From: Octopus bimaculoides
Taxonomy: Eukaryota
NCBI RefSeq assembly: GCF_001194135.2
Contig: NC_068986.1
Span: 9,417,946 to 9,481,945, forward strand
Reading direction: 5' to 3'
DNA length: 64,000 bases
Shown: positions 265 through 39,132 of the stretch, one piece after another
Position numbering within the stretch: the first letter of the stretch is position 1
How the letters are laid out: every line of letters starts with the position of its first letter
The notes under the pieces: model-generated
Seen by the model: only the letters and a program-made list of their open reading frames with translations
The model's database searches: none
Told to the model about the DNA's origin: nothing
Position numbers and translations under genes: made by a program

Positions 265-446
265 GTAGGTAGTAGTATACTGCTGCTATGCATGGTGTTT
301 TAATTAATTTGTATTCATTAAAGACCCCATTTATTATTATCCATATTCATTTGCTGCGTCATTAAAATTCTCCAAGACTTAATATTAAGAAACTATACTT
401 ATCCCAAATAGTAAGAAACCAAATTTCTTAATATTTCTGTTGAATA

Positions 447-660
447 AAGTGGCAAGCTAGCAGAATCATTAGCATGTTGGGCAAAATGCTTAGCGGCATT
501 TTGACCGTCTTTATGTTCCATGTTCAGATTCTACTGAGGTCGACTTTGCCTTTCATCCTTTCAGAGTCGATATAATAAGTACCAGTTGCGTACTGGGGTT
601 GATGTAATTGACTTACTCCTTCCCCTGAAATTACCTCTTTGTGTCAAGGCTTGAAACCAA
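447..660 (+). mobile_element. tRNA-derived SINE family A
   Basis: A/B-box-like head (tggcaagctagcagaat...gttcagattc) and body gtcgactttgcctttcatcctttc. Other copies at about 11415, 12205, 13362, 13590, 31005(-), 35880, 46330(-), 49320, 53460(-), 59700(-), 61125, 61372 and 61525(-). Confidence 0.85.
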
Positions 661-966
661 TATTTTTGTTGAGTAAAATTATTGTGGTTTATATCTATCA
701 CAGTTCCAATGAAAACTTCATTGTTTTTATTCTTGATCCTATTTAAACTTTTTGTCTCACTTGAAGGCAATATTCTTCATTGTAACGCTAGATGATCGAG
801 AGGGTTATATGCCAGCGAAGTTCATTTCTAATACGTAGCTAATATTTCTGATATCAATTTGTAACCCTGTCTGATGTTTCTGATATTTCCCCACCTTGAT
901 AAACAAACTAATGAATAATGAATTAAGGTCAAGTCAATTCACTTTCTCATTCGCACGTTGCGTCAG

Positions 967-978
967 AGCAGCTAACAA
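967..978 (+). CDS. Candidate microexon 2 (12 nt, phase 1/1), EQLT
   Basis: actttctcattcgcacgttgcgtCAG|agcagctaacaa|GTGAGT. Strong donor, TGC just upstream of the acceptor, frame-preserving. Confidence 0.5.
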
Positions 979-2899
979 GTGAGTTTTATACAAATTAACT
1001 AACCTAAAACAGCTGCCAATTTTTCTCTTTTTATAACTGCGTTCCTATGGTAACCAAAAGCAATTGAGCTTAAGGCTAAATCTTCATCTGTTCCTGAAAT
1101 ATGAAGTTCCTGTCCTTTTCCTTTATCCTTTTTCGTTCTGGATTCACTTTATTTAATCTAAGAATTTCCAGCACTATTCTGGTAGCATCCAAAGATTTAT
1201 AAATTTGAGTAATTGTCTTTTATCTTTGATTTAAGCAACATTTGTTTCCCAAGATATGCTTCTAACATGAAGAGATATTATTCCATGCATGCAACAGAGA
1301 AGTTTATACAAGATTTCTGTTGCCAAGGACATTTTTATTTGTAAAATTAGCTAATTACAAACAGCAAAGTGAACATTAACCTAATGTAATTGAATAGTAA
1401 ATTTCAATTAAGATTAAACCTTCAATGAGGAGAAATGACATCAATATAGTATTAATAATTCTGGTAAAGAAAGGTAGGGGAGATAAATGAGGGGAGATGT
1501 TATTAGATAATAATAACCTTGTCTTGTTGGTTGCTGATATCTTCAAATTTGTGTAGGATTAGGATTAAAAGAAAATGTGATTATCAGTTGATTGATACTT
1601 ATATAGATGTTGTTTAGTTACAACTCAAGCTCTGATGACATTTCAGCTTTGACCACCTCATCTTTTTTGTATGCTTTACTGTTTTAAGACTGTAAAATGT
1701 GAGTTAATGGAATTTGGTTGTCATTTCAAGCAGGTTGAATAGGGATTTAAATTGTGATCATCATCACCACCATCATTACATGTCTACTCACCCTGACTCC
1801 CCCCCCCTGTTTGCCTGGGTTAGATGTTCTTTTTCCAACCCACCTTATCCCCACTTGTGATTCCTCATCAACTCCTTCATAAGGTTTACTATTTTGAGCT
1901 CAGCCTTCACGACTTCTTCCCATGTTTTCCTTGGTTTCCTTTCAGAAGGAGCTTTTCTGCTCTCTCTTGTGAATTTAAAATATTTACTCATATTTATTTA
2001 CTATTTAAGAATTTACTTTAAAGCATTCTGTTTTTAGCTTCCTGGTTTCATTTCTTTTTCTTTATATTTTTGTCTCTTTCTATCTGTGTTTTTTTATTTT
2101 TTTTATTTACAACCACAGTTATAAAGTTGTATCCCTATTAGGTTGGTGAAGAAATTTCTGATCCGAGACTCTTTTAGCATCATGTCTTCATCTTTAGAAT
2201 ATTTGTAAACAGAACCAAACAACTTAGATAATTGTCAGGGAATTCGTTAATATAGAAAGGAGCCATTTTATTAGGTTCAGCTCCAGTTTTGAGATGCAAA
2301 TATTTTTATCTCTTCTTCTGGATGTTTATCTTAAGTGTTACGTGGTCTTTCTAACTTCTTCATTGATAAAAACTTTCTGAACAATAAGCAAAATGTCTAG
2401 AGTTTTTCATATCATAATGAAATTTGTATTTTAATTTAGAATCTTCTCTCTGCTGCAACGTATGTTATTCATGGAGGCTGTTAAGAATCTTAGATGAATG
2501 TAGTTTTGTGAATCTTGTTTGGCAGGCACCATTACTGATCAGGAATTTTTAAAGTGAAAGAAAGATGCTACTAAAGATTTCTAAATTTATACAATAATTT
2601 ACTTGAAAACAGAGAGGAAAGCTAATTATTTTGATGATTATTTAGTTGTTAACAAGCTAGTTACTGTAATAAGGAGTATAAATAGTTGCATAAAGAAATG
2701 GATGGTTTCTACTGTGTGGCAGCTTTGCAACTGGAAATAAGCAAGAAATAAAAATGATTGGGTCTAGTCATACAATGGAGGTGGTTGAGTTGAGATGCAG
2801 GAATGATTTGCGACTAAGTAATTATATTATGTGAGTTGATGCCTAAGATGTGTAAGAAAGCTCAAAGAGAAAGAAAACTGATGGCACATGTTGGACTCT

Positions 2900-3072
2900 T
2901 TAACCCTTTAGCATTTAAACTGGCCAGATCCAGCCTCTCACACCTACCCTGCAATGTCATTCTGAAGATAGACAATCACATCTTTGAAGTTTCAAAGCTA
3001 CAAGATAATGCAGAATTCACTTTAAACCATGTAAATAACTAAGCATTACATTTGGCAATGGTGAATGGTTAA
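2900..3072. mobile_element. TTAA-CCCTTT MITE remnant (related copy at about 7526-7740)
   Basis: Begins ttaaccctttagcatttaaactggcc and ends aatggttaa. Internal sequence is shared with 7526-7740. Confidence 0.6.
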
Positions 3073-4689
3073 AATCAGAATCTAAAGATCTCACTGAAAA
3101 TTCTGAATGGTTTCAATGGTGTTGCTTTTGTTGTTTTTGTTAGATGAACTTTCCTGAGAAGGAATTAGCAAGATCCCTGTCACTGGTACCCAATTTCTGG
3201 TACCCTGTAATTTCACAAACTGCCTCCATTTAGCAATGCACCACTTCCTCAGCAATGGCATTGGCAGGCTACTTATCAAGTTTTAAATTCTTGAAATTCT
3301 TTAAGAGTAAAATGTCATATATATGATAGACTATATTTCTGGGCTGAAAGATGGAAGCAATTCTTTTTATTAAAAGACTCCTTATTGAAGCCCCTTGTCA
3401 GGTTGTAGACTCTTTGCATTATTTTAAAGAAATGAAGTGCAAAGCTTTATTGATATCAATTGTGGTTAGATTATTATGATGGTAGATTTTGTATTGACTG
3501 CATCTAATTTATAGTAGGAAAATGTAAGGATTCAGCACAGTAGCTAGATACCATATGTGTAGTGAAACGTAGGATATTGAAAATAACTGATAATTGTTTT
3601 AAAGATTGTAGGAGTGGAATATTTGTTAAGCTTTAATATGGTTGTAATCTTATCTAGTTTTTATTGTCTTGAGTTGGTATAAATAGCCAATGATAGTAGT
3701 ATATTGATTTTGGTGGACTCGTTGATGATTAGATTTTATCTCCTCATCATTTTATGTCTGCCTTCCATGATGGTATAGGTTGGACAGTTGGACAAGATCC
3801 AATGGGTTAAGGGACCATGTTATGCTCTGGTGTCACAGTTGCATATTTGGTTGAGCCATGTAGTATGGGATTTTTCTAAATTTCTCTCATGTATTTTGCT
3901 AAGGAAGATGTGAGATTGTGTTGTTGGTGGAAAGTCTCCTTATTACAAGTAACTCTTATTCTGTCTTTGTGATTATTAGCATAGATTGCAGATCAAATGT
4001 TTTCGTGTCATTTGATGTTATCAAACAGTTTTAGTCAGTGGAAAATATATAGTAGGGCTTGTAATCTTTTGCCACTAAGTTGTGTTGATTGGAGAAATTA
4101 ATACAATATCATGGTCTCTGCTGTTGTATTTTCAAGCTATTTGTTAAGATCTCTACTGGACTGACCTCCTCATTGTGGAGTATTCTCATTTGAAGTATTC
4201 TGTACATAGATGAAGCCTAATGATTTCATTTCTTCTGTTAAGAATCTGTTGTGAGAGATTTCATTGCTGTATAAGCTCTTCTGAACTTGCAGGGTATGAA
4301 GTCCACCAATTATTGGTGCTAGACTTACCGTCTGCAACCCCTGAGCAAATGTTGCAACCAATCATCTGGTATAAACTTAGTGTTAACTAATTTAAGAAAC
4401 CTAAAAATCTAACTAGAAATTATTAGATACTGATTAATATTATTTCGAGACTTTTGGTAAAAATGGGAGATAACCATGGAGAAGTTTCTGTCACATTAGA
4501 TGTCCTCAGCCAAGCAGAGATTTCACTGTAATTAATGAAGTAATAAGGTAATCGTTTTGTAACTGCAAATATGCATTTGTTGCCAGAGAAAGATAGAAAT
4601 ATTCCCAGAATCAATTACTCTTTGATGCTGTCTGCATGCTCCTCTCCCTACTCTCAAACCCATTTCAACATACATCAACAAACCAAAAG

Positions 4690-5090
4690 CTTAGCAGCTG
4701 AGACAGTTTGGATATTTTGAAAGAGCACTGGTGGTCTGTTAGGGCCCAAGGCAAAGAATTGGCTTTGGACTTGTGCAGTTAGTGTTTTCTTTGGGCCTCA
4801 GCAATCCTGTTCTGTTCATAGGGGATCACACCTCTGCTAGGGCAGCTTCACCATGCTGGGTAGTTTTATGTTTGCATTTCGCAGGCGTCCGGGTTGATCT
4901 TAAAGCTCTTCAGTGAGGCCTTGAGTGTATCCTTGAAGCACTTTTTCTGTCCACTTTGCGTACACATGCCTTCTGCTAGTTTACTGAAAAACAGTCTCTT
5001 GGGGGTGTTGCATGTCAGGCATTCAAACAAGGTGACCTGCCACATATTCTATGATTAGAATCATGAGCAGAACTAAACTTTAGAAAGATG
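4690..5090 (-). mobile_element. RTE-clade LINE 3' fragment, degenerate
   Basis: The minus strand gives GHLV.MP..TPKRLFFSKLAEG....GQKKCFKDTLKASLKSF-like sequence. Boundaries are approximate. Confidence 0.7.
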
Positions 5091-5220
5091 ACTCTTCATC
5101 TATTGAAGAGTGGAAAGAAAAGAAATATCTAGTAGAGATAACTGAAAATAATATTTACTTGTAGAAGTATACTGCGAATAACATTTAAATCCTTTAAAAC
5201 TGTCTCTGGAAAAAATAGGT

Positions 5221-5422
5221 TTAACCCTTTTGTTACCAACCCGGCTGAAATCAGCTCTGGCTCTGAATACAAATGTCTTGTTTCCATAAGTTTTCAATTA
5301 AAATCTTCCTTAGTTACAATTTATGTTTCTAACACTAGCTGAATGATAACTAAATTCTTTGTTATATTTAAAGTAATTGAAAGAAACACAGAACATCTAA
5401 AATACAGTAACGAAAGGGTTAA
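5221..5422. mobile_element. piggyBac-type MITE
   Basis: TIRs ttaacccttttgttac and gtaacgaaagggttaa, with TTAA at both ends. Confidence 0.8.
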
Positions 5423-5575
5423 GAAAAAAATATAAACATGATATTTACCATGGCTTCCTACTTCTTAATGGATTGTTTTATAAATATTCCAAAATGAAAA
5501 GGAAAAATTGTATTTATGTAATCTACTTATTCATAATAATTTTGTTAATTTCATAAATTTTACCTCTCTTGGTAG

Positions 5576-5608
5576 AAGAGAAAATTGAAGCAGTTCAAAT
5601 CACTTCTG
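5576..5608 (+). CDS. Microexon 3 (33 nt, phase 1/1), xEKIEAVQITS
   Basis: tttacctctcttggTAG acceptor, TG|GTATGT donor, open in the same phase as the other microexons. Confidence 0.65.
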
Positions 5609-7863: not shown

Positions 7864-7893
7864 CAGAGGAGTGTCCTCTCCCTGATATTATTG
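7864..7893 (+). CDS. Microexon 4 (30 nt, or 27 nt via NAGNAG), AEECPLPDII
   Basis: Poly-T tract, TAGCAG acceptor, TG|GTATGT donor. Paralogous to the exon at 8201-8233. Confidence 0.8.
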
Positions 7894-8200
7894 GTATGTA
7901 TTTTAAGATTCCGGACTTTTTCTAATTTCAGTGATTAAAATTTCTTCCAAATTAGGTTTTTTTTTTTTGCTTGGGAGATTTTTTTTCTCAAAGTTAGATA
8001 CATTTCATTCAATGACCATTTCTTATAATTTAACATTTCGACAATATTTAATTGGTTTAAAAAATAATTATCCGTAAAATTAAATTGAATACTGAAAATT
8101 TTTCAGTTAAATAAACATCTTTAAACTTTTTATTAACAAAAAGAAATATGCAAAAAACTATCTCTGGATTTTTTTTACTTTCCTTTACCTTAACGAAAAG

Positions 8201-8233
8201 AAGAAGATGAACGTCCACTCCCTGATGTCATTG
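8201..8233 (+). CDS. Microexon 5 (33/30/27 nt), EEDERPLPDVI
   Basis: Pyrimidine tract, CCTTAAC branch-like motif, AAG AAG AAG tandem acceptors, TG|GTGCGT donor. Shares the PLPD[IV]I motif with exon 4. TGCATG at 8265-8270. Confidence 0.75.
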
Positions 8234-8738
8234 GTGCGTACTTTCACTCTCGGAAACTGCTTATTGCATGCAGTGTATTTTCATACTTATATTTTCCCTG
8301 TTTATCTCACTGTCTCAAATTGGAAGGTGTGGTTCTGTTTAGAGATTTCTTAGATTTTAGTCACTGAAAGACATATCCTTTTCTAGATAGGATGCCAGTC
8401 TATCAAAAGCTTTATCCACAAAAAACTATGGACTAATGAAATGGTGGTAAATCATAAAAATCTTCTGGCAAATATTATGAATTGTGTCTCTTAATTTATG
8501 CTCCTGTGTAAAGTGAGCAGCAGTATAAAAAGTAGCTTTACCAAAAATATAATGATGGAATTCACATTAAAAACTCAGTTTAACTGAAATTGCTATCAAT
8601 ATTAAAAGTTAACCTTTTTAATACCAATCCACTCAAGATCGCCCTTGGTTCTATAACAGCTTCCTGTTTTAAAATGATTGAAGTTAAAACTTCCCATAGA
8701 AATTTCATGTTATGTTCTAAGCACCAACTCCATAATGA

Positions 8739-9044: not shown

Positions 9045-9086
9045 ATTTTAGTAAATCCTTCATTATTTTCATAATTTATTGGAAAT

Positions 9087-13286: not shown

Positions 13287-13316
13287 AGGAAGAAATACAA
13301 ACTACTTATCGTAAGG
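13287..13316 (+). CDS. Microexon 6 (30 nt), EEEIQTTYRK
   Basis: tttatttttcgttCAG acceptor, AGG|GTAGGT donor, phase 1/1. Confidence 0.7.
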
Positions 13317-14420: not shown

Positions 14421-14450
14421 CTGAGAATTTGCCGCCTCCTAGTTTTATGG
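14421..14450 (+). CDS. Microexon 7 (30 nt), AENLPPPSFM
   Basis: Pyrimidine tract with AAG acceptor, GG|GTAGGT donor. The downstream intron (gtaggtatcagttgtctggtttgcatg) resembles those of exons 9 and 11. Confidence 0.8.
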
Positions 14451-15012
14451 GTAGGTATCAGTTGTCTGGTTTGCATGATGTTTCCTGGAGTTTTCCTGTA
14501 GTCATAGAAGAATTCCACTTACTAAAACTTCTAAAGTCATAATTTTAGTTATCTTGATATCTAGCTGTTGTATTGGTTCAATTTAATTCATTTAATTACC
14601 TTCCTTATAAAGACAATTAAATCTTGAAATGTGTTGTTAAGATATAGCAGAAGTATACTTTAAGAAAGTTATGTATTGTTATATCAGACATACTCTAAAC
14701 GAAAACCATTTTTTGGTTGGCGTCAAGGAGAAGAGTTTGCTGCAAATACTTCGGTCCTGTAATATTTGTTCCACTCACTTTAATTTCACATTACATCAAT
14801 GGTGATGATGATTGTTACTACATTTGAGATGGAACAACAATTTCATTATTAGCTGCAAACCTCATCAGTAAAAAAAAAACAAAAAAACAAAAAACAAAGA
14901 AAAATCACAACAAAAATATATATTAAAGAATAAGGGTTAATTCAGTCTGTTGGTCCTCTTGAATAAAATGGCTGTAATACTTAAATATTTCTTGAGCAAC
15001 TGTTTGCCCCAC

Positions 15013-16329: not shown

Positions 16330-16362
16330 TTGAAGAAGTGGTCAATGATGCTGACATTGAGG
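16330..16362 (+). CDS. Microexon 8 (33 nt), VEEVVNDADIE
   Basis: tttctgttcCAG acceptor, GG|GTAGGT donor. Paralogous to exons 10, 12 and 13. Confidence 0.85.
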
Positions 16363-16670
16363 GTAGGTAAACCAGATGATGCTATGTATTAGTTCTGGTC
16401 AGACCCAGTCTTTTACCATTTTATTCATTGTTAGCAGGTGGGTGGGGGTACTACAGGCTCTTGTGAAGTCAAAGAATCCTTTCTCTTTGTATAATTGTGT
16501 GTGTGTGTGTGTGTGTGTGTGAATGTGTGTATAATTACATTCACACACAAATTGGCAAAGTAATATAAAATTACACTGCTATTGAATTTAATTCAGCAGA
16601 TCCATATGTTGTTTGATAATATCAATAAATGCTACTTCATTGTGAATATTATTAGAGAGAATTAATTATA

Positions 16671-17875
16671 TCGGGTCGTCCCATAAATAATGCAGTTTTT
16701 TCAATTGCATGAACTAAAAGTCGGAGGAGGACGGGTTAAACTACCTGCATCAACTTGCTATAAAAGCAAGTGGTAATTTTACCTTGCCCTTATTCTTAGT
16801 GCAAGTTTTGAAGAGTGCAGATTGATTTTAACAGTTATTTTTTTTCAAAGCCATAATGGAAGTGACAAAGCATATTTTGCTTTATGAGTTCAATAAAGGC
16901 AACAGAAGCTGTGAGGAATATTAATGCAGTATATGGAGATGGAACAATAAGCGTAAGCCAGTGTCAACAGTAGTTCCAGAAATTCTGAACCAGAAACTAC
17001 AGCCTTAGAAGATGATCTTCATTCTGGAAGATCTGTAAAGCTCGATGAGGACACCCTGGAAACCCTGGTGGAATAAGATCCCATCATAACTGTTGAGAAA
17101 CTAGCAGTGAAGCTTGAATTTGGTCATTCAACCATTCATTGCCACCTGGCGTACCATTGGAAAAGTCAGCAAATTGAGTCAATGGGTTCTTCACAAACTT
17201 TCCCAGTCTAATTGCACGCAGAGAGTGAATGAACCTTTTTTGGACCGATTAGTGATTGTTGACAAGAAATGGTTTCTCTATAAAAATGTCAAGTGCCAAA
17301 GACAGTGGGTAGGGAAAGGAGAAACTCCAGCACCCCAGACTAAAGAAGGTCTTCACCCACATAAGGTTTTGTTATCTGTTTGGTGGGATACAAAAGGTTT
17401 AGTCCACTTTGAACTTTTAAGCCTAAACCAAATGATACAGAGATCTACTGTGAGCAGTTAGAAAAATAAATGACCATCTTTGGTTTCAAGACGAAAGGTG
17501 TTCTTCCATTAAGATAATGCTCAGCCACACAGTGAGAATGACACTCCAAAGGCTGGAGCAGTTTGAATGGGAAACAATGCCCCACACACCCCATTTGCCA
17601 GACATTGCCCCCATTTGATTATTATTTATTCCACAATCACAAAATCGTTTGGACGGAAAAAGTATGAATTTTGTAGATGAGGTCAGAACAGTACTGGAGG
17701 AGTATATTTTGTCATGGACAAGTAAATTTTGGAAAAGGGGCCTTGCAAATCTACTAGATAGATGGAAGAGCATTGTAGAAAATGAAGGAGAGTATATTTT
17801 AGATTTTTAAAAATTTATCTTCATTTTGAAAAATAAAAGTACAAAAAAACCCACATTATTTATGGTATGACCCAA
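16671..17875 (+). mobile_element. Near full-length degenerate mariner (Tc1/mariner) DNA transposon
   Basis: Imperfect TIRs of about 30 bp (tcgggtcgtcccataaataatgc... / ...cattatttatggtatgacccaa), flanked by TA on both sides. Confidence 0.92.
16856..17810 (+). pseudogene. Mariner transposase pseudogene (stops and frameshifts)
   Basis: Recognisable LLYEFNKG, WVLHKL (WVPHEL-like), IVDKKW, KVLLSVWWD, DNA.PH, PDIAP and GLANLLDRW...ENEGEY. Confidence 0.9.
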
Positions 17876-19054
17876 TAGTTTTGTATTAAGGAGAACTTCA
17901 CTATCAATACTATTAGAGAGAACTACCGTTTGTTGCTAATTTTTGTATACAAGTTTGCTTATTGTAGATCTTGGTGGATTAGGGATTAGTTTATCCCTTA
18001 CAGTGTTCTTTAATGAATGTTGTTCAGTTTAGACAAAAGAATTTGTTGGATTCTTGTCTGAAAGTTTGAGGTCCCTTAGATATTCCTCACTTCAATATAT
18101 GACAAATTATAAACCTGGTTTTTCTTGTTAATCTGAAATCTCTTTGAAACTCAGGTGTAGAGTAGACATTATTGCGAATATCTTTCTGCTTAAAAATAAA
18201 ATAAATATTCAAAGGATTTTCAGTGCCCATGGATTTTTTTTTCTTTCAAACCCACCAGGAGTGAAGTTCAACTTGAATTTTTAGAGAGAAGACCTGGCTG
18301 GGAGGGATGTATCCATTCATGTGAGGTCTCAGTATTCTGCCAGGCACTTATTCCCTATTTAGTCCTTGATAGCATCATTCCAGTTTTATCTTTGTTGCCC
18401 ATGAAGCTGTTTTCTGTCCCTCTGATCACTGAGGATGCGGGCACACAACTTCTGGGTCCTGATAATATGACTAAAAAATTACAATTACTGCCATCTAACT
18501 GTGGTTACCAATATTTGATTTGCTCCAATCTTTAAGACTGAATTCCCTGTTCTACAGGCCAATCAACTGATCCACAGTGCTCCCTTGTAGCTTGTCATCT
18601 TAAATGCCATCTGTGGTCTGGTGTCAGCCACCTTTAGTCCATCCTTATCTTTAGGGTCCATGTTTAAAGAACATTAAAACTGCCAGGAGAAAATGATGAA
18701 AGCTTTAATGCATTTAAATCTTTTAGTTTCTTTTTTTTTTTAATATCAATAATTGTGCTTTTGAAATCATCTTTGTAATTGAAATATATTCTATACTTTT
18801 CACTATACCATTGTACTTTATTAATTGATATGCAGTTGATAAAATATACTTTTATGCACTTCTAAAGGTTGAACACAATCTAAAGTCTTGACTGTATTTC
18901 ACTACTCAAATGTTGACAATGTAATAAAATAATAATAATATCATATATCTGACAATGTAATATATTACATATATGATAATGTAATCACAATATATTATTA
19001 CATTCTTTAATATATTAATATTATTGATTTTTAATTTTTGTTTTACATTAATAG

Positions 19055-19081
19055 AAGATTTACCACCTCCAGTTGGAGTGG
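19055..19081 (+). CDS. Microexon 9 (27 nt), EDLPPPVGV
   Basis: ttttgttttacattaaTAG acceptor, GG|GTAGGT donor. Identical to exon 11. Confidence 0.85.
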
Positions 19082-19609
19082 GTAGGTACCAACCTTCTGG
19101 TTGATTTGCATGCTGTTTTCACTTTATTCTCTTTTCAAGAGCTTTATATATAAAAATTCTTTGCAATTTAAATAGAAAATTCTTAATACTTTTGACAATC
19201 TTTGTAGCAATTCATAAATGGTTAATTTTGGATTTTTGTTTGAGGCATATTTTTTAGAAATTATTTCTGTTTGTAATATTTGCTACATGTGAGTTTACTT
19301 GCAAAATTGTGTTTGTGTGTGACTGCACATGCTTCAGCTTTCTTTCATACATCGTCTGGCACTCTTAGAAATATCCAACAACTTTGATAGATTCAGATAA
19401 ATTTGTTATGACTACAAAAAGATGGATTAAATTGACTTTTCTATCACATTAAAACGAATCACTGTTAAGAATGAATATCATATACCCCAGATATGACTAT
19501 CTGGTGACTACAGTGTGTTCCCTGTTAATACATACTCACTACAAATCTGCTCAATTTTAATTTTATTCAAATTCAAACTCACTTTGCCGTTTTAATAATT
19601 TACAGTATT

Positions 19610-23453: not shown

Positions 23454-23483
23454 TGGAAGAAGTCAGTGATATTGATGTTGATG
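23454..23483 (+). CDS. Microexon 10 (30 nt), VEEVSDIDVD
   Basis: tttctgttcCAG acceptor, TG|GTAGGT donor. Confidence 0.85.
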
Positions 23484-23989: not shown

Positions 23990-24016
23990 AAGATTTACCA
24001 CCTCCAGTTGGAGTGG
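23990..24016 (+). CDS. Microexon 11 (27 nt), EDLPPPVGV
   Basis: Identical to exon 9, including 10 nt upstream and 31 nt downstream. Confidence 0.85.
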
Positions 24017-24591
24017 GTAGGTACCAACCTTCTGGTTGATTTGCATGTTATTTCAACACTGCTCTCTCTCTCTCGTTTATTAAATTTGCAGAGGTTTCAT
24101 ATAGAGAAATTGATATTTAACATTTTTTTATGGAAAAGTTTTAGTACCTTCAAATATCTTTATAATTGTTCACAGCAATCACTGTTCATAAACAGTTCAT
24201 TTTGGGTAATATCTGTTTGTAGTATAAGTTATTAATATTCAAAATTAAATATTACTATTTGTTTCTGTTGAGTATGATGTCTGACTGGAGAAAAACCAAA
24301 AAAAGAGGCCCTATTAACTGTTTTCTATTGTAAATGTGACCATTGTGGTACAATCTTAAAGGATTCTTTCATTAGGATTATAGAACTTTGTCTTCAAAAA
24401 AGTTATAAAATGTAGAGAATCTCCCTTCATTTCTGTTGCATAAATGGATGAAATTATTGGGAATGATTGCCAAACATTTACTTTGTTCAAAAACTAATCT
24501 AGAAATATTTTTGTGGTTTGATACTAATCAGCTGTGTTCAGAAATTTGTTCATTTATCCATTTATTGACGCATCTCCTGTTTTTGTTCCAG

Positions 24592-24624
24592 TTGAAGAAG
24601 TGGTCAGTGATATTGATCCCGATG
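24592..24624 (+). CDS. Microexon 12 (33 nt), VEEVVSDIDPD
   Basis: tttttgttcCAG acceptor, TG|GTAGGT donor. Confidence 0.85.
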
Positions 24625-25949
24625 GTAGGTAACTGGATGTTATCTGATAATCTTGTATGTTTTAATTAATGTATGGTGATTTTTTTTGTTCCCCCACTTA
24701 AATCTCAATTATTTCCTGTCGTTGATGTAATTGTGATAATATCTTACTTCTAATCTCTATCATTTATTACAAACAACCTCATTCATAATTTTGAACTTTA
24801 CCATATTTACCTTCTGTAGCAAAGTCCTTTTTTTAAACCTCATTGGTCTTGTAGCTCCACCAAGTTCTTTCTTTTACCAAATTTTTCTGTAAGTATGCAC
24901 ATGAAACAAAACTTGGTTTTGATACTGCACTGAAAGTTCTTCTAGAATAATCTAACACAATTGCCTTTAGATGTTAAATTCACTACAACTTTATTTCCAA
25001 CTGCTATGGTATTTGTTCTTGTGATCCAATTTTACAATTACCATATTTATTCTTGCTGCCAAGTTTTACAGTAGCTTTTTTTTAAACCTTGTATCTCAGT
25101 GTTTTCGTTTATGGTAAAATTTGAAGGTAACTATAATAGTACAACTATATTGATGCTATTTTAAGGGTTATATCGTTTTACTTCCAGTAGAATTTCTGAC
25201 TGTAATAAATTGTCTTGAAGGAAAACGATAAGCACTTTCGAGAGAGGTTTATGAATTTAGTGTTTGAGAGTTTCTCTTTGTATGTGTGCGTGAGAGGAAT
25301 GGGTCTATTCTTTCATTTCCTTTAATTAACTCTGTTAAGTTATTTACTAAATATTTGAACAAACTGCTACTTGAAGAATATAAATTCTCCAAGAATCTGA
25401 CAAAACTTAGATTCTCTGAGAATGCTTTAAATAGATATTTCTTTTTCACTGACCTACTTCTGAAAGCTTGTCATTCATAACTGGTTTATAGAAGTATTTG
25501 GAAAGAAATGTCATTATTCAGACTGACTTTCAATAGATAGGAAAAAAAAAAAACAGGTTTGATGGCTTCACTGGATTTGTAGCCTGTAGCTTTCATAGAA
25601 CACATGATTTTTAAGGTGGGTGTTGTATAAGAGCTTTAATTTTGATCTGGAAAACTTCAAGAGTATGTTCAATGCCTAGCATTTTATGATTCCTTGAAAC
25701 CTGGGTTTGTACAATGTCTTTTATTGTACTTTTGCTTGAAAGAAAGGGTATTTTTATGGCAGTGTGATCAGTAACAAGGAAAATGTAGTACACATTGGTT
25801 TCTGGAATATTTTCTTAGAGTTCCATAAACAAAACTGATTGAAATTAGTTGTGAGATCCTCATTTAAATGTCTCTATAAAACAAAACTCATTTTTGAAGA
25901 ATCTTGCCAATCACTAAAAACATTAAATTTTCTTTTTTCATATTTTCAG

Positions 25950-26173
25950 TTTCTTCCTTCCTTTTCTGTAACTCTTTCATTTTCTTATCCAAGTTTCTTC
26001 CTTCCTTTTCTGCAACTCTTTCATTTTCTTATCCAAGNNNNNNNNNNATTTCCTTATCCAAGTTTCTTCCTTCCTTTTCTGTAACTCTTTCATTTTCTTG
26101 AATTTCCTTATCCAAGTTTCTTCCTTCCTTTTCTGTAATTCTTTCATTTTCTTGAATTTCCTTATCCAAGTTT
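25950..26173. repeat. Pyrimidine-rich minisatellite (44-54 bp units, about 4 copies, with a 10-N gap)
   Basis: Repeated tttcttccttccttttctgtaactctttcattttctt(gaatttcctt)atccaag. Confidence 0.9.
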
Positions 26174-26480
26174 TCTTACAAATCCCAAAGCTCTTTCAAA
26201 GTACCTTTATAGGTTCTAGTTTTCTCTGGTTTGTTTTTCTGGTATCAACTGTGAGAAAACCAATAACTTTATCACACTGAAATAGGAAAAAACATCAAAA
26301 ACCATAACTTTTGTTTATTATTTAAACAAATCTATTCCCTTAGGTTTCTAGTGATGAAACAATTGTACTTTGCTCTGTTTAAAACAATCATCTTTGATGG
26401 TAATTAATAGTTTATTTGTAACTAAAAAAAAGTCTTTTATTTTTGTATTTTTTCTGAAGTCTGTACCATTTCTGTTCCAG

Positions 26481-26513
26481 CTGAAGAAGTGATCAGCGAT
26501 GCTGATATCGATG
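26481..26513 (+). CDS. Microexon 13 (33 nt), AEEVISDADID
   Basis: tttctgttcCAG acceptor, TG|GTACGT donor. Confidence 0.85.
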
Positions 26514-26749
26514 GTACGTAACTAGACAGTCCTGATCATTTCATAACCATACTTGCTTCTAGTGATTAATACTATTTGATTAGCTCGTAGAAAAATACAA
26601 CTGTAATACCTCTTTGAACCTTGCAACCCCAAAATTTATAAATGCAGTTTACAAAAGATCTTCATTTAAATATAAATAATTTAAGTATAAATAGCCAAAC
26701 AATTATTCTGTGCTGATGAAGGGAAATAACCTGGAAATCGCGATGCACA

Positions 26750-26970
26750 GATATTGTTTCGAGCTGAGTTGGGGTGCTAGATTCCCTTGTTCAAAAATAT
26801 AAGGACACAGATCATGTCTTATAGCCAGCTGGAGATGATGTCTCCTGGGGCTAAATTACAGCAACATTTGTCCTAAATCAGGACTGCCATGTTATGTTGG
26901 CAAACAATCTTTACTCCAAAATACTGTTGCTGAATATCGCTCGTGAGATTTACAAATAGTAATTTTCTAA
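26750..26970. repeat. Single-arm copy of the element at 8.7-9.0 kb
   Basis: About 200 bp highly similar to 8871-9037, preceded by the reverse complement of the 8821-8860 loop. Confidence 0.8.
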
Positions 26971-29642
26971 ATATAAATAAACCTACATATTCAAATATAT
27001 ATAGTCCTAAACAATAATCTAAAATATTTTGTTATCCCCAGTTCGCAATGTTGCTGTTAAATTAGACATTAATTCTTGATTCATAAAAAAAATACCAATA
27101 TAGATGAGAAGTTAGACAAGATATGTAAGGTGATGTCAATGAATAAAGACAAAGGACAAGATATTATATCACTCTATGTTGAATGCTTCTTTTATATTTT
27201 GGGAAAGCATTTCTTTAGCAAATACAAGACAGAAAATAACCCAGTAGTTCATAGAAAAAGTGTAATTATTGGCACGTCATTCTGGTGTATTGTGATTCTT
27301 AAAGGAAACTATTCTGAGATATAACCAAAGCATTAAACAATCTACATAGGGTGATATATCATCTTGTCTTTATTTATTGACATCATTTTACATATTTTGT
27401 CCAATTTATCTGTATTGTTTAAAGGTTTTCTTAAATATACTTACATCAATTAATAATCTATGTAACTATTTTCTCATACTGAACTTTTGATAAATTTTTA
27501 TAGCAATAATAATACTTCAAATATATTTTCAATGAAAAGTATTGAAATTTCTTATATAGTTAGATATAATTCAAAGACAGTGAAATTTTGATGCCAAAAC
27601 AATAAATCAATAATATTTATCTTTATTAATTAACAACATTTTACAAAATTTATGTATTTATATATGCTTGTGGTTTTAAATATCATATAATTTAGTTACT
27701 TTTTTTTAGTTTAAATCTGGCTGGAGTTGATAAAAAAAATACCAGAAATATATCGATTGCTTGCATTAATATTGATAATTATTTTTTATAACTATCATAC
27801 ATTGCAATCACTTTTATCAGTTTTAATTTTTCTGAGAAAGCTTTTGACAATTTTTACATAGAATGCTGTTTGGTAATAATTTTTGTTGAACATTATATCA
27901 TGACGTAGTTTACAAGGATTGTTATAAATTCAAAAAAATGCAAAATAATCTAGTTTTATTTATTCAAATTGTAAATGTCTATTGACTCTTAACTTCCTGT
28001 AAGACCTAATAGCATTTGGAGACTATATCAGTCAACTACTCCTGAAACACAGGATGTCACAAGATTCATACTAACCTTGTTCACATTCATTTTGAAGGGA
28101 GTAAGGAACTCTCTAATGCAAGGGAGAAGACTCTACTCTCTTCCTCTGTTAATTTATTGTTCTGTAATGGCATTATTACAGGAATGGGGTTTTCAAGAGG
28201 ATGTTGTTTAGAGTTAAAATAATTAGTTTTACTGTAATTATCCTCTAATGCAGTGGTTCCCAACGTGGAGCCTGAGAAAATTGTGGCAGGGCATGGTGCT
28301 GTGGTCACCAGGCACAAGGTTCTCATTAAAGTGATTCGCTTTTTTTTTTCTTAGTCAATAATGTACATTTTTTTGTTTGTATTCAGTACTTAATAAAAGC
28401 GTTGATAGATTCTTTTGTAGTAAATAATTGATGTAAAATATCAAAAATAAAGTTGTTGTTTTTTTCCCAACGACTGGTGGGGGCATACATTTTCCTGGAA
28501 AGTTATAGTGGAGCCTGGGGGGAAAATAGGTTAGGAAATAGCTTCATCTTCAAGCCTTTCTTCTTAATCTTAATACTTCATAGTGTTGCAAAAGAGGTCT
28601 GCTTATCTGACTGGATGATGATCATCTGGTGTCTTATTTTAGAATTGGTTAAGAACCATGAAAAATCCTTGGAAGGGTAGACTTGTGTTGTTGGTTCCTA
28701 ATTAGTTAGTTTCCAGGACAATAGAGTGTAATCTCCAAAAAAAAAAAAATGGTTTTGTTAGGAATGCAAGAAAGAAGGAAAAACAGGAATGTACTGTTTT
28801 ACATTTCATGCAAACAATGTCCAAGTGGTGCACTTCACTGCATAATAATATGCAGTGAATAATTTCTTTAGATGTAGTGAAGTATTATTACTTAAATGGT
28901 AAACTTAGAATTTCAGCTGTGACTATGACCTGCAGAGGGAAAGTTTAGAGAAGTGTTATTCTTGTTGACATTTGGTTGAGATTTCTATAAATCTTATACT
29001 GTACAACAGTGGTAGTGAGTGGGCATAAAAAAACCTACAGCAGTTGCCTAACAGCAGCTTCTGCAAGGCCTGTTTTATTGGTGTCAACAGTTATTGGAGA
29101 GAGAATGGTGTATGGAGGGGGGAGTTGTTATCACTGGGGTCCGTTATGTTGAATCTGTTACTATTGTCATTACTATAGATTATATAAACTTGAAGCTATT
29201 TCTATACTGACACTCCAATATCAGTCTGGGTGTGTGTATGTTACATTTGGAAACAAAGTATAACAAGACTCTATCATTCTATCTACAAGAACAATTATTA
29301 GGAAGAAAATTTACCATTTTGGGTGTGTGAGCAGTGTTCATTCGGTGGGCCTGGAATATATATTCCTGATAACCATGTGACTGCCCTAATTAAGTTGCGC
29401 ATGCTAGGTGGAGGTGAATTGTTTCTGTTGCAAAGATAGATCACAAGAAAAGAAATCCGATATGGCAACTTTGGTGACCATCACAAGTGAGATGATAAAG
29501 GATGAAGAAGCATCGTAAGATGCAGTCTTGCTCACCAATACAACCCGTATCAGAATGGTAAAACTTGCCATAAAAAGGGAATAATGTTAACATTACAATT
29601 AAATTTTAATCTTATAATAAATTTCTAAATTCTAAGTTGTTT

Positions 29643-29679
<37 letters not shown>

Positions 29680-29760
29680 GCTCACAATAATTTGTGCTGT
29701 GTATAAAATAGCTGACACTTTTTATACATATATATATAGATATCTTTTTTTTCTTATCAG

Positions 29761-29790
29761 AAGACAAATTTTCGGCACCAATTATTGTTG
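29761..29790 (+). CDS. Microexon 14 (30 nt), EDKFSAPIIV
   Basis: tctttttttttcttatCAG acceptor, TG|GTAGGT donor, GCATG at 29815-29819. Confidence 0.75.
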
Positions 29791-31269
29791 GTAGGTATTG
29801 AGTTGAAGCTTCAAGCATGGTGTTCTCCTACTTAAAAAACTATTTTGTGTAGTTTTTTTTTTTTTGTAAACTGATTAATTTTGCAGCTGTTTCTTGTATG
29901 TCAAAGATTTTGGGCTTATCTATCAATCTTAGAAAACTTAAAATGGTTTTATCATAAGTTTAATTATGCATGCAAATATTTTTAATCACTTAAAATCTTG
30001 ATGACTTTAAAATTACATTTCATATTAATATTACAACAACAACAAAAAACAAACAAGTAGAACACACACACACACACTCACTGCTTTTTTTAAAAAAATG
30101 TAGTTAAGACTGTTCCACTAAGAATGTTTGTGAAGAATGTTTGTCTTATTCAACAGAATTGATGTTTCTGTGGGTTTGCAATAATAATACTTTTATTAAT
30201 TATAGTAATGATGTCATTATCGTTACTGTGCTGTCATATATAATTTTTTCTTTATCAATTTCTGATGTTTCGTGTTAGTTAACAGTGATCTGTTTTATCA
30301 ATGAAGTCTTTAATCATAAGTCTTTAATCAGCACCCATTTGTGACACTTGATTAACATCTTATTTTCCTTACTAACCCAGTCTTCAGAGAGCAACAGCTG
30401 CATATTTGCTTAAGTAAAAGTTGGTCTAAGTTTCACACTATTTATTTATGTCTGTTTTTTCATGCTAGCATGGGTTAGATGAATATAATATTGAAGCGTT
30501 GTTTAATAGGCCAAAAGAACTGACACCCTTTCATAACTCACAACTCACAGAGCCCAAATGTAAACACAAACCTACACATATATGATAGGCTTCTTTCAGT
30601 TTCCTTCTATCAAATCCTCTCACAAGACTTTGGTTGGCCTGGGGTTATCATAGAAGACTCTTGCCCAAGGTACCACACAGTGGAAATGAACCCTTTGTTG
30701 TTTAACCTTTTGCACAGTATCTCTCTAGTTTTTCACTAATTTTCTGCTATTTTTTACACTTTCTTGTCAATAGTATCAACATTCTGAGACTAAACGTTGA
30801 TCTGCCTTTTCTTTTGCTTTCATTGCACTGCAGTCACGTGTGAAAGGTTTTACTCAAACATATCAACAGCAGTACTCATTTCTAAATCTGGTGCTTAATA
30901 GTCTCTGTTTGTTGTACTGCTAAGTTACAGGACAAACAAAACCAGAATTTGTTTTTTACAAAGCAATGTCAACATGCAGATATATATTTCTTTATTGGCC
31001 ACAGGGGTCTAAACACAAAGGGGACAAACAAGGACAGACAAAGGGATTAAGTTGATTACATTGATCCCAGTGCGTAACTGGTACTCTATTTATTGACCCC
31101 AAAAGGATGAAAGGCAAAGTCGACCTTGGTGGAATTTGAACTCAGAATGTGTGTGTGTATGCCTCTCCCCTCCCAACTGCTGCAGCCCAACACTGCTCTC
31201 TTAATTCTCTCTCCCTCTCTCCTGTCCTCCCTCTGCTAACTGTATCATTACTGTCACTTCTTTTCTATC

Positions 31270-31668: not shown

Positions 31669-31817
31669 TCATCTCTTACTGCATTCCCCACACCCTTTTG
31701 TACCTACATGAGCTCCTTACTCACATACCCTGAGCAATCCTTTATATCTACATCCTTTTACCTTGAGAGCACATCCTGGCACATTGTCACCATTTCTCTC
31801 ACTGCCCCTTACTCTTC

Positions 31818-31854
<37 letters not shown>

Positions 31855-33594: not shown

Positions 33595-34002
33595 AAATTG
33601 TAGTTGTGTTCCCTGTGCCAGTAGCACGTAAAAAGCACCATCCGAACGTGGTTGATGCCAGCCCCCTCGACCTGACTGGATTCTGTGCTGGTGGCATGTA
33701 AAAAGTACCATCCGAACATGGCCGATGCCCGCACCACCTTGACTGGCTTCTGAGCCGGTGGTACGTAAAAAGCATCATCCGATCATGGTTGATGCCAGCC
33801 CCCTCTGGCCCCTGTGCCGGTGGCACGTAAAAAGCACCTACTATACTTTCAGAGTGGTTGGCATTAGGAAGGGCATCCAGTTGTAGAAACACTGCCAGAT
33901 CAGACTGGAGTCTGGTACAGCCTCCTGGCTTGCCAGTCCCCAGTCGAACTGTCTAACCCATGCCAGCATGAAAAACAGACGTTAAATGATGATGATGATG
34001 AT
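33595..34002 (+). mobile_element. Repeat family C (SINE-like, (GAT)n tail) with an internal 62-70 bp minisatellite
   Basis: ggttggcattaggaagggcatccag...aacccatgccagcatg..gacgttaaatgatgatgatg. Other copies at about 10497(-), 21660, 31270, 32020, 41590, 46745, 49955(-), 52815(-) and 56025(-). Confidence 0.85.
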
Positions 34003-34170
34003 ATTATAGAACAATATTGTCCTGGTAGTTAATGTCTTTAATTAACCAAACCTGTAATTTAAATGGTTGTGCTAACAAGAAAAGTTATCCTTGTTTCGTA
34101 ATTCAAGAATATACAGATCAGACCTAAGAGTTAGGAACTTCTTCCTATCAGTAGTTGGCTTTGTGCTCCC

Positions 34171-34211
<41 letters not shown>

Positions 34212-36419
34212 GTATAATTATTATTATTATTAAACTCTTCTCACTCTTCATGGCAGAAGTAGAGACAAGGAGAGAGTAAATATAAAACTCAATGATGGAA
34301 TTAATTCTTTCTTGATTTAGAAATTTGTTTAAATTTATGAAAGACAAACATTTCGTTAGACAAGGCAACAGTCTTTCCAGATTAACTTTACCAGAAAGTC
34401 TGCTATATATTGCCAAACTCATTAAACCAAGGTAAATCGAAATATCAGCAGTGAGGTTTGTGGCTCTAAAGCTGACAACATAATACTTTAATCAACTCAG
34501 TCATTTTTAAATGAAAATGTTTCACATCAATCTCATACTTTTTATAAAGTTAATAACAATTTTCTGTTTTGGTGATTTTTTTTTATCCAACACTGGGATT
34601 TTCCATCAGCATAGCCATGGGAGTCTCAGAGATAGCAAGTATTTAGCTGTAGCAGATAGTGCCTGCCATGAACTAAGAAAAGTTGGGCTGGCACCATTAA
34701 TTTAGTCACTTGGGAAAAAATGAATTCTATGGAAGATGTTTTCCAATAAACATTTCTTAAGCCTGCTACCTCCGTAACATCTTGAAAAATGGCTGAGTAG
34801 ACACCAGTTAGTATTCCATCAAGATTCTGTTAAGAACCAAATTAATGTTTGGATACTGACAGGAACCTTTAGTAGGTATTGAGGGAAATATTGTTATGAA
34901 GGAAGGCTATCTCAAAGATTTTAAATTGGGAAAAAGGTGTTTGATATATTTCATTCTTGAAAGAATTAAATATTTTTGTTTCAGAAGAGACTAGCTGCAC
35001 TTCAGATGTTTCTGTTGGTAAAATGGAATAAATTTTTTGGAAAAATAGCATTTGACTTGCTGAAGTAAATTACTTCTTGACTTTAGTTTAAGGAGAAGAA
35101 CGGGTTTGTTTCTTTACTCATAATTGCCCAATTCTCAAAGATAGGGGTTCTCAACTGCAGCCCTCAAGCATTCTTCCAGCAGCCCTTGATGGTCTTCCCT
35201 CTATAAATAGATTTTTCTTTAACTGACTTGTGTTTTATTTTTCTTTGGTGTACCCCCCAAAATAATCCAGGTTTTGGATCTAGCCCAGATATTAAAAAGG
35301 TTGAGAACCACTACTCAAAGATGTACGGACCTTATAGGTATTTTTGTAAGGAAGAAATATTTGGAAACAGCAAAGGTTTTCATATGAATAGGAATGAAAA
35401 GAAAATTGCAAGGACCACACAGGTAAATATACCAGGTAATAATCTTGGTAAACATACCAGGAGCATCAGGTAAATATATCAAGTAGATACCTTCTCTCAC
35501 AGAATCTATATAACATGTTTATTTTTTTAATTGATTGCAATATACTTTTGTCAACTGAAATATTTTTGTGAGCGACTTTCAATGTCTGTCGCAGAGACTG
35601 GTTTTTATTACAAAGACAAAAATGTTAGTCATTCAAATGATAAAAGACTATATGGACTTGTTTCATATCAATCTCATTAAAATATTTCAAATACTTAATT
35701 ACAGACTAAATTATCTTGGATGTTGTTAACTCTTTAATTATATTAATTAATATTAGTCTGACAAAGAGATCTGTCTCTCTATTGATTTTAATTTCTTGTA
35801 ACATCATAAACTATGTAAATTGTAAGTCGTTAGAATATATAATTATTGCCTCCCCCTATTAATAAAATTATTGTTATTAAAGTAGAAAGCTAGCAGAATA
35901 GTTAGCATGTTGTACAAAATGTTTACCATCATTTTGTCCATCTTTACAATCTGAGCTCAAATTCCACCATGATTGACTTTGCCTTTCATCCTTTCAAAGT
36001 TGATGGAATAAATACCAATTGAGCTCTGGAATCAGTGTAATTGATTAACCCCTCCCCTAAACTTTCAGGCATTGTACTTATAGTAGAAAAAATTATTATT
36101 ATTGAGGTGAGCACCATAAGAATAGCAGTATCAACATCTCAGAAAACCTAGTTAAACGTCTGGTCATTTCACAGATGTTAAAGAAAACACCATGAATATC
36201 ACTCCACATTTCTCTTTAGTTAAAATTCTCACTTTTTTTTAGAAATGCTAAACAAATGGAGTAGGGGAAAACAGTAGAGCACTGGCCTAAATACCATGCA
36301 ACATTGAGTTTTCTTTTTTGAATTTAAATCTTAAAGAGGGTAGCTTTCTTTTATCCATTATGGTTTCATAAAGTAGCTGTTATTTATTATTTTTACCTTC
36401 ACCTATGTAATATATATAT

Positions 36420-36472
<53 letters not shown>

Positions 36473-37555
36473 NNNNNNNNNNNNNNNNNNNNNNNNNNNN
36501 NNNNNNNNNNNNNNNNNNNNNNNNNNNNNNNNNNNNNNNNNNNNNNNNNNNNNNNNNNNNNNNNNNNNNNNNNNNNNNNNNNNNNNNNNNNNNNNNNNNN
36601 NNNNNNNNNNNNNNNNNNNNNNNNNNNNNNNNNNNNNNNNNNNNNNNNNNNNNNNNNNNNNNNNNNNNNNNNNNNNNNNNNNNNNNNNNNNNNNNNNNNN
36701 NNNNNNNNNNNNNNNNNNNNNNNNNNNNNNNNNNNNNNNNNNNNNNNNNNNNNNNNNNNNNNNNNNNNNNNNNNNNNNNNNNNNNNNNNNNNNNNNNNNN
36801 NNNNNNNNNNNNNNNNNNNNNNNNNNNNNNNNNNNNNNNNNNNNNNNNNNNNNNNNNNNNNNNNNNNNNNNNNNNNNNNNNNNNNNNNNNNNNTTTATAT
36901 TGAAAGAATAATAATTTTTAAAAGCAAGTCAGTGATATTAATGAAAACTAATCAGTGAAAATTCTTGTTTTCTTTCTTTAATTTATGTAAAAATCTTTGC
37001 AAGATGTATTTATAATGAAAATATAAAATTCTTTTATGTATTTTTCTTTTTTATCATTGAACGATGCCATTGTTGTTGTTGATGTTTAGCTTCAGGTTGT
37101 CCTAATCAAGTTGACAATCAAAAGCATCCTATCTTTTTCCTAGGTACACTGAATCCAGGAGACCACCTTATCCAACATGTCCCTTTTTTTTTTTCCCTTC
37201 CTCTAAGATGTTAGGGCATGGTATTTAACAATTATTTCTAGCCACCTGAACTACCACAGAGAGGTTTTTTCAGTGGGCTGGCTATTGAAAAACATTTCCT
37301 TGTTGATGTTGTCTTTGACTATCTCTGATCAGTGCTAATTTAAAACTGTTAATATTAGCAAAAAGGATGATAGAAAAAATGAAGTGGTTGGTCAATAAGA
37401 GTTTATCTTTGAAACCTTAACTTTTTTCAATTGAAGTCTGTGTATGTTTGTATGTATATGTATCTATGTATATATCTATATAAATAAAATACGAATATTT
37501 GTGGTGCGTCTGTTGAGCTAACATTCACACTCTTTATTCTCTACTTACCATGCAG

Positions 37556-37570
37556 GAATGACTGCAGACG
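37556..37570 (+). CDS. Microexon 15 (15 nt), GMTAD
   Basis: GCTAAC branch-like site, pyrimidine tract, tgCAG acceptor, CG|GTGAGT donor, TGCATG at 37587-37592. Joins in frame to the exon at 43536. Confidence 0.75.
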
Positions 37571-39132
37571 GTGAGTAAATGACTCCTGCATGACGCCTTT
37601 ACCATTATTGCTTTTTTTACCATTTCTATTGCCCCTGATATTTTTATTCTTGCTATTTGTTGTTGTGTGTTTTGTTTAACCCTGCTCCTGTCATCTGTTT
37701 CAATTCCATTGTTGCTTATTATTAAAAGTCATTGTTAACACAATGCTTAACTGTTTCATTATGTATTAAAGGAATTATCCACAGGATCAGGGTTGACATA
37801 TAAAGTCGCTGTTCAAGTCTGATATTGTAAAATATCTAAATATTCTGGTTGTCAAATATTCTATTGTTGCATGTTAATGTTGTCATTGTAATTCTGTTTT
37901 ATTTATTCAATTTATTTTATTTTATTTACCATTTTATTGCTTGATTTATTTATATAGCCAGAATCACAAACATTGCTCTTCTTTTAACTTCTATTTTTCA
38001 ATATTTTTTTAAAAATTTTTACATTCAAAATAAGTCTTTAATATATTTTTTTCATGACTTTCTCACAGTAGTTTTCCTACTTTTTGTGAAGAAGCAGACC
38101 TGATTCCATTTCTTGTTTTAATTTCCCACTTTAGACTTTATGGCAAATAGAACAATACACTTGATACGTCACTACAAAATACATAAGGACTATGTGCCTC
38201 ATTGCTTGGTTTGTTAGGTTTTTTTTTTAATTAAAATAATCTTGGACAAATTTGTTTTTGAGATTTCCCATACTCCATCTTTTTGGAAGTTTTCCTGGTA
38301 TGTTATTTTAACTATTGGGGTGACAGCACTAAGCAGTGATGTGTTTAAATACAAACAATAGTAAATTATAATGGTGTACTTCAATTTGACCAGCCGTATA
38401 CTTCAAGGATGCCTACAGGAATTTCCAATGATATAATTCAGTTTCTTTAAATAAGATAAGTTAAATAAGTCCGGTTTCTTTTATCAATCAGATTCCTATT
38501 AACGATAATGATATTTATGTCGTTTACTATTTACAATTCTTCATAATTATGAACTCTTTGTTCATTACACTCAAAATCATTGATAAAGTAATTTGATGCA
38601 AAATAATTATTGAGTGACTAATTAACTTGTTAATCACTATGCTAGTGTGATGCCTGTTATATGAATTAAGCATATTTACCCTAATATGCTATGTAAGATT
38701 AAAACCATACCATGTTATTTGAGTAGTTCTATTTAGAATAACATTTAAAAGTCAACCATTGTTATGTATACTTGGAAATATTTCCATTTTGGAGTACATT
38801 AAGTGTTCAGAATGGCTTATCAGTGAGTAGAATAACATTTTTTTAAAACTCCTCAAAACGAACCCTAAACCTTACTTTCATAAGGTTTCACTTCATAATC
38901 TCCCTTCATTTTTATTAGGGATACCAAAGGATTCTTATATTGACATCACTTGAGTTGTGTTCAGGTCTTCATTGCTATCAAATATTATTTTAATATTGTT
39001 ACTTTATTATTATTGAATGATATCTTAATAGTTTTTGTGAAATAGTGTTTAGTCTTTTGTTAATAATAATGTCCATTTCAAAAATTGGATTACCAACATT
39101 GTACAATGGAATCATAGCTATTTACAGTGTAT

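Follow-up and report, generated by a model that had tools for sequence, protein, structure and literature searches.

Rbfox proteins bind (U)GCAUG in vertebrates and, as Rbfox1, in Drosophila, with an effect that depends on position, according to the available part of the source (10.1101/2021.05.09.443278). Among motifs downstream of alternative human microexons, TGCATG alone is over-represented, and binding there enhances inclusion, as described in the accessible text of PMC4317164. Here we describe an array of at least 16 microexons in Octopus bimaculoides. Fourteen of them lie in the window analysed, a stretch of 64,000 nucleotides (NC_068986.1, positions 9,417,946 to 9,481,945 of the forward strand); another sits 7.8 kb upstream, and a further one is on an unplaced contig of 616 nt. 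Nine of the 16 are followed by GCATG, starting at +18 to +33, in eight cases with a leading T. Judged from the sequence, these (T)GCATG sites are probably Rbfox splicing enhancers, which would promote near-block inclusion of the exon chain into the mRNA and so add an acidic linker to the protein.

The closest described system is that of the mammalian RBFOX-enhanced alternative microexons (Li et al. 2015, PMC4317164), which, in the portion of that study available, are at most 51 nt long, alternative and enriched in downstream TGCATG. The octopus exons share these features, being 15–39 nt long, alternative in the records and followed, in nine of 16 cases, by a proximal GCATG above background; all 16 are a multiple of three in length and in phase 1. 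They differ in forming a set of 16–18 paralogous exons within one linker of a mollusc gene, with the motif confined to +18 to +33 and an inclusion that looks block-wise, the role of Rbfox being putative.

Three other systems offer partial likenesses. The titin PEVK region, as far as the available text of PMC8553726 describes it, likewise combines many short alternative exons into a spacer rich in P, E, V and K, with proline-type and acidic-type units and a length set by splicing. However, the octopus host is a PF22979/PF01048-like protein without immunoglobulin repeats, its units span 5–13 residues rather than the 26–28 of titin PPAK repeats, and its linker has a net charge of -49 and no basic units. 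The regulator of titin is the repressor RBM20, not Rbfox. Membership of the titin-type PEVK springs was rejected because the host is not of the titin family and its units are not PPAK repeats. The schistosome micro-exon genes (MEGs) and VAL-6 (PMC4350168, in the part available) share runs of very small symmetrical exons, many near-identical isoforms and a lophotrochozoan origin, and in VAL-6 the small-exon run also lies inside an ordinary gene. In contrast, MEGs are mostly microexon-coded and specify secreted or gland-associated parasite proteins, whereas the octopus array provides only 188 of 766 residues of a protein conserved across protostomes; membership of this group was rejected as well. 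The eMIC/Srrm234 neural programme also acts on short frame-preserving exons in bilaterians, and its signature is a UGC close upstream of the acceptor (available text of PMC8797185). This candidate was dropped, UGC being found in none of the 15 assembled acceptors at -25 to -5.

The microexons of the array and their motifs are listed below. Exons were placed by mapping isoforms and motifs by sequence scan, with further evidence named where it exists; offsets are counted from the donor.

7.8 kb upstream of the window: first exon of the array, 30 nt, proline-free, with TGCATG (GCATG at +28); included alone in short isoforms
226–264 (+): microexon, 39 nt, proline-rich, motif-bearing; acceptor an ACC repeat without a T tract (octopus isoform mapping)
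289–294 (+): TGCATG at +25
5576–5608 (+): microexon, 33 nt, no proline, no motif
7864–7893 (+): microexon, 30 nt, proline-type, no motif; pyrimidine-rich acceptor, tandem acceptor at 7867
8201–8233 (+): microexon, 33 nt, proline and acidic, purine-rich AAG acceptor, motif-bearing
8265–8270 (+): TGCATG at +32
13287–13316 (+): microexon, 30 nt, no proline, no motif
14421–14450 (+): microexon, 30 nt, proline-type, AAG acceptor, motif-bearing
14472–14477 (+): TGCATG at +22
16330–16362 (+): VEEV-type acidic microexon, 33 nt, no motif
19055–19081 (+): proline-type microexon, 27 nt, motif-bearing, identical to 23990–24016
19107–19112 (+): TGCATG at +26
23454–23483 (+): VEEV-type acidic microexon, 30 nt, no motif (also spliced reads)
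23990–24016 (+): proline-type microexon, 27 nt, motif-bearing (also spliced reads)
24042–24047 (+): TGCATG at +26, ending a 31/31-identical block in common with the 19081 donor (sequence comparison)
24592–24624 (+): VEEV-type acidic microexon, 33 nt, no motif (also spliced reads)
26481–26513 (+): VEEV-type acidic microexon, 33 nt, no motif (also spliced reads)
29761–29790 (+): microexon, 30 nt, one proline, motif-bearing; extended by 7 residues through an upstream acceptor in O. sinensis models (also spliced reads)
29815–29819 (+): GCATG at +25, preceded by A
37556–37570 (+): last array microexon, 15 nt, no proline, motif-bearing; included alone in short isoforms (also an RNA contig)
37587–37592 (+): TGCATG at +17

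All seven motifs reported in a first-pass annotation of this DNA were found where it had placed them, with TGCATG starting at 289, 8265, 14472, 19107, 24042 and 37587 and GCATG at 29815. The offsets also agree (+25, +32, +22, +26, +26, +17 and +25 from donors 264, 8233, 14450, 19081, 24016, 37570 and 29790). The reported absence of the motif holds for the four VEEV-type exons (16330, 23454, 24592 and 26481) and for exons 5576, 7864 and 13287, none of which has a GCATG within 300 nt downstream. One further exon numbered in that motif-less list may be unreal, no exon appearing between 264 and 5576 in the isoform records examined.

The chance of TGCATG had been put at under 1% per 40 nt, which is too low: the empirical frequency is 2.0% in the host gene and 3.6% (24/675) behind GGTR sites, and for GCATG 4.5% and 5.9% (40/675), respectively. 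On the + strand of the whole window, TGCATG occurs 32 times and GCATG 68 times. Despite this corrected background, the motif excess is far beyond chance. Across 132 kb of the host gene, GCATG stands behind eight of 15 assembled array donors, compared with none of 45 look-alike G|GTRNGT sites (Fisher p = 2.5e-6) and none of four constitutive donors of the same form; within +45, it is absent from all eight constitutive donors. Merging the three proline duplicates and the four VEEV exons leaves 11 lineages, seven of which carry GCATG (binomial p 1e-7 to 7e-7). Over these lineages GCATG ranks first of 1024 5-mers (Bonferroni 4e-5), and the overlapping TGCAT is the sole other 5-mer to pass correction in this unbiased scan. 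Among secondary Rbfox 5-mers, GTATG occurs in two of seven motif-less introns, without pattern. A genome-wide strand test of AGGTAAGT followed by TGCATG at 10–28 nt gave 465 matches, against 383 for CATGCA, and was set aside as uninformative because reversed controls differ more (374 against 232) and many matches lie in simple repeats.

Stored isoforms and RNA reads indicate how the array is used. All nine short full-length octopod records listed (579–594 residues, with one of 573 from Argonauta) are without any interior array exon and keep at most the first and last, both motif-bearing and proline-free. By comparison, each of 19 long models holds both proline and acidic classes, as do six N-truncated long records of O. 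bimaculoides, which were excluded from the short and long counts together with one fragment. Within the 19 long models, the motif-less units 7864, 13287, 16330 and 23454 are present in 17, 17, 9 and 12, respectively, and 16330 is the unit most often skipped. Of the motif-bearing units, the first 27-nt copy is present in 12 (an ambiguous assignment), the unplaced copy in 11 and 37556 in 16. Spliced reads from three RNA runs join 23483 to the 27-nt proline exon (6, 16 and 6 reads), that exon to 24592 (8, 22 and 11), 24624 to 26481 (7, 12 and 9) and 26513 to 29761 (10, 15 and 6); since 19055 and 23990 are identical, their junction rows were summed. The four serial junctions total 28, 41, 28 and 31 reads (chi-square p = 0.31), and one RNA contig runs from 29790 through 37556 to 43536. 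Among the 15 joint rows listed, of 21, there is no joint for 16330 and no skip of a single class.

These data bear on the proposal of the first-pass annotation that the motif marks proline-type exons and defines two regulatory classes, with Rbfox switching proline cassettes in tissue-specifically against a constitutive acidic backbone. Taking proline-type to mean two or more prolines in the exon, the motif follows six of seven proline-type exons and three of nine others (Fisher p = 0.06), the latter including the four VEEV-type exons, which all lack it; a single proline unit is also skipped in some O. sinensis models. Both observations favour such a switch. Counted by lineage, however, the contrast shrinks to four of five proline-type against three of six others (p = 0.55); the near-fixed downstream position and the enrichment are real, and the motif appears to be under selection, whereas the division into two classes fails. 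The proline label itself does not hold, given that exon 37556–37570 has no proline, 29761 has only one and the proline exon 7864 lacks the motif; in all, three motif-bearing array exons are not proline-type and one proline-type exon is motif-less. Nor is there an acidic backbone in the isoform records examined, none of which keeps acidic exons without proline exons: no acidic-only isoform occurs among the octopod records listed, and the short ones drop both classes. Acidic units are singly skipped too, 16330 most often, and the exons found singly in short isoforms have no proline. The three RNA runs carry serial junctions through both classes at similar counts, and no acidic-to-acidic skip over 23990 appears among the joints listed, which speaks against proline cassettes being switched. 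A tissue-specific switch of proline cassettes against a constitutive acidic backbone is unlikely; a minor class effect in some tissue is possible.

Paralogy within the array raises a different alternative, in which the motif is a functionless passenger, spread by duplication of a single ancestral exon together with its flank or made uniform by gene conversion. The motif-bearing exons 226, 14421, 19055 and 29761 resemble one another (z 4–5), the first six donor bases are common to 11 of the 16 array donors and three exons are clear duplicates, all of which would suit such copying. Some proline-type exons are probably distant paralogues, so that independent gains of the motif may number as few as three. 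Yet with the motif masked, the flanks of different lineages are mostly as alike as shuffles (z mostly below 3): similarity between lineages has been lost, while the 5-mer remains intact at varied spacing (+18 to +33), and among paralogues within the octopus array it is held more strongly than the masked flanks. The retention of the motif in diverged flanks therefore argues for selection. Downstream of donors 19081 and 24016 the duplicates are identical at 31/31 positions up to the motif end and then match at 11/19, 37/50 and 57/100, the last being near alignment noise; an identity that ends exactly at the motif points to selection on it. The unplaced copy of the same 27-nt exon keeps the motif across a shorter spacer, and the six VEEV pairs match at only 7–16 of 23 positions in +9 to +31. 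Exons 7864 and 8201 are paralogues (z = 8.7), both proline-type and 307 nt apart, of which only 8201 has the motif; the two belong to the same amino-acid class but are unlike in motif and acceptor quality. The motif is also carried by 37556 and by the upstream exon, neither of them clearly akin to the proline group. A passenger origin thus seems very improbable. Somewhat less so, though still not likely, is that the element does function, but through a different RNA-binding protein, as a repressor or as part of a longer element, several copies having a TGTT-like tail. Four genome-wide matches to a donor followed by TGCATG, N and TGTT include three in the array, the fourth having a poor acceptor context, and Rbfox sites can repress in some paralogues according to the available part of 10.1101/2025.08.16.670673. 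Against this, no 5-mer other than the GCATG core and the overlapping TGCAT survives correction in the unbiased scan, a downstream site agrees with activation, and the binding specificity is common to vertebrates and Drosophila.

We therefore return to the reading of the sites as Rbfox enhancers of the chain, with Rbfox inferred as the binding protein and as an activator. Octopus Rbfox, bound 17–33 nt behind about half of the donors, would make exon definition steadier along the chain, and motif-less exons with clean pyrimidine-CAG acceptors would be carried along once their neighbours are defined. The long form would likely be enriched where Rbfox is high, in neurons or muscle. Motif-bearing acceptors are richer in purines at -11 to -4 (p = 0.014 over 16 exons), and a role of the motif in compensating for weaker, purine-rich acceptors is suggestive only. 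The product is an insert of 188 residues in a protein of 766, made up to 48% of P, E, V and K and with a net charge of -49; its composition predicts a disordered linker, which would determine how far the N-terminal domain lies from the winged-helix/nucleosidase-like part. An RBFOX3-like transcript has been reported from a BLAST match in O. vulgaris, as stated in the available text of PMC5736919.

Several points weigh against this account. The isoform counts are of automatic gene models, not percent spliced in, and comprise 18 long O. sinensis models (of at least 48 isoforms) and one of O. vulgaris. The RNA consists of raw reads from three runs of one study, labelled as the same species and with tissue not stated, of which about 6% each was covered; the stretch used in the RNA test held no constitutive exon, so it yields no short-isoform share. 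The link to purine-rich acceptors falls to p = 0.14 by lineage and uses a measure chosen post hoc, acceptor strength by pyrimidine or T count shows no significant difference (p = 0.10 and 0.83), and two motif-bearing exons have strong acceptors. For the one pair 19081/24016, a gene-conversion tract ending by chance at the motif is possible. A search of the species' own genome for the Fox-1_C domain (PF12414) was empty, as were its controls, and so carries no information.

The array appears to be larger than the assembly shows. Of the 18 units in the longest O. sinensis model examined, two have no counterpart in the O. bimaculoides DNA analysed; a mismatch scan of the locus DNA and a DNA search with a VEEV exon and its flanks gave no new copy, and gaps of N just upstream of the window coincide with the expected place of one of the two. 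At positions 40–66 of the unplaced contig the 27-nt proline exon occurs a third time, again followed by TGCATG (GCATG at +23). The end of this copy is joined to 23454 by reads in two runs and by a contig, and it matches a unit of O. sinensis isoforms; the chromosome assembly therefore seems to be without part of the array between 19081 and 23454. An RNA contig joins a further VEEV-like exon, a look-alike of 24592–24617 without a copy in the DNA examined, to a 27-nt proline exon, and this is probably unit 11 of O. sinensis. Tandem (NAGNAG-type) acceptors occur at 7864, 8201, 19055 and 23990, with one-residue variants at 7864 and 8201 in O. sinensis models, and at several VEEV donors another GT follows 4 nt further on. 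Single array exons gave no Pfam matches. At 16670–17880, the array intron holds a decayed, mariner-like DNA transposon remnant with inverted ends, on which multi-copy reads pile up.

The host is an octopus gene encoding an uncharacterised winged-helix/nucleosidase-like protein. Stored isoforms, mapped onto the window and 140 kb upstream, put the start codon upstream of the window, at a distance of about 69.7 kb, and the array in a single ancestral intron, flanked by an exon of 120 nt, which lies 10.3 kb upstream of the window, and by exon 43536. The exons downstream of the array are as follows.

43536–43644 (+): first constitutive exon downstream of the array, where the winged-helix region (PF22979) starts (isoform mapping, domain search)
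near 47518–47637, 49636–49779 and 55487–55612 (+): further constitutive exons (isoform mapping)
62420–63166 (+): last coding exon, nucleosidase/PNP-like domain (sequence search, isoform mapping)

The last exon matches the O. bimaculoides record LOC106873546 at 100% and O. sinensis LOC115212809 at 97%. At E<=0.001, a sequence search with its protein found 539 relatives; those of the 120 listed that bear a name come from molluscs, annelids, arthropods and other protostomes, and a protein-atlas search returned only arthropod clusters of the same family, without names. Full-length proteins combine the winged-helix domain PF22979 with a weak phosphorylase/nucleosidase-like domain, PF01048, which scores below the cut-off in the octopus protein. 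Sequence matches in the PDB are weak nucleosidase matches only, the best being an MTA/SAH nucleosidase (E = 0.017), and at the EME motif the family profile of the domain in 62420–63166 departs from that enzyme. The weak alignment and this difference suggest that the nucleosidase-like domain may have altered or no activity. A separate alternative microexon of 15 nt lies near the N-terminus, about 49.4 kb upstream of the window, and is variable in octopus and in probable decapodiform records. It has no GCATG before +171, which suggests that a second regulatory input acts on the host gene.

An alignment of 93 sequences places the array in an evolutionary setting: most relatives lack an insert here, and in many molluscs and arthropods it measures about 6–36 residues. 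Such inserts occur in bivalves, gastropods, a chiton and arthropods, and where more than one isoform is listed they vary among these; the insert of one clam is similar to the last array exon, and one Haliotis paralogue has a different, longer region at the spot. Eight non-cephalopod clusters have isoforms of at most 635 residues among those listed (9–15 per cluster). Proteins close to a Sepia record hold an acidic insert of 476 residues and are probably cuttlefish or squid orthologues, given their near identity to the cluster that holds the Sepia pharaonis record. Their variants differ by 7, 11, 12 and 23 residues, which implies some 40 small exons. Their short forms keep only the first and last units, and a unit nearly identical to exon 37556–37570 is present. 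The interior units, known from protein records only, are unlike the octopus ones, which suggests largely separate expansions. Taken further, coleoids may use the array as a rheostat of Rbfox dose, in which little Rbfox would leave only the two end exons and much would include the whole chain. A titin-PEVK-like acidic spacer would then vary in length, between 0 and about 190 residues in octopus and up to about 470 in decapodiforms, having arisen from one ancestral alternative-exon hotspot through two largely separate runaway exon expansions. We offer this broader picture tentatively, as a possible but doubtful extension.

No paper on this gene, or on an Rbfox–microexon signature in a cephalopod, was found in the literature covered, which excludes most subscription papers; the available parts of PMC11703226 and 10.64898/2026.09.05.749416 make no mention of this gene or of Rbfox in octopus. 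The rule that Rbfox sites lie downstream of microexons is already known from mammals. The octopus locus forms a compact natural experiment, in which one gene combines 16 paralogous microexons, some having the site and others lacking it, and allows a direct test of Rbfox logic in molluscs. The locus also bears on how enhancers are retained or lost after exon duplication and on the block inclusion of a long microexon chain. The array marks a cephalopod-restricted innovation: a splice-tuned spacer in an otherwise conserved, unstudied protostome protein.

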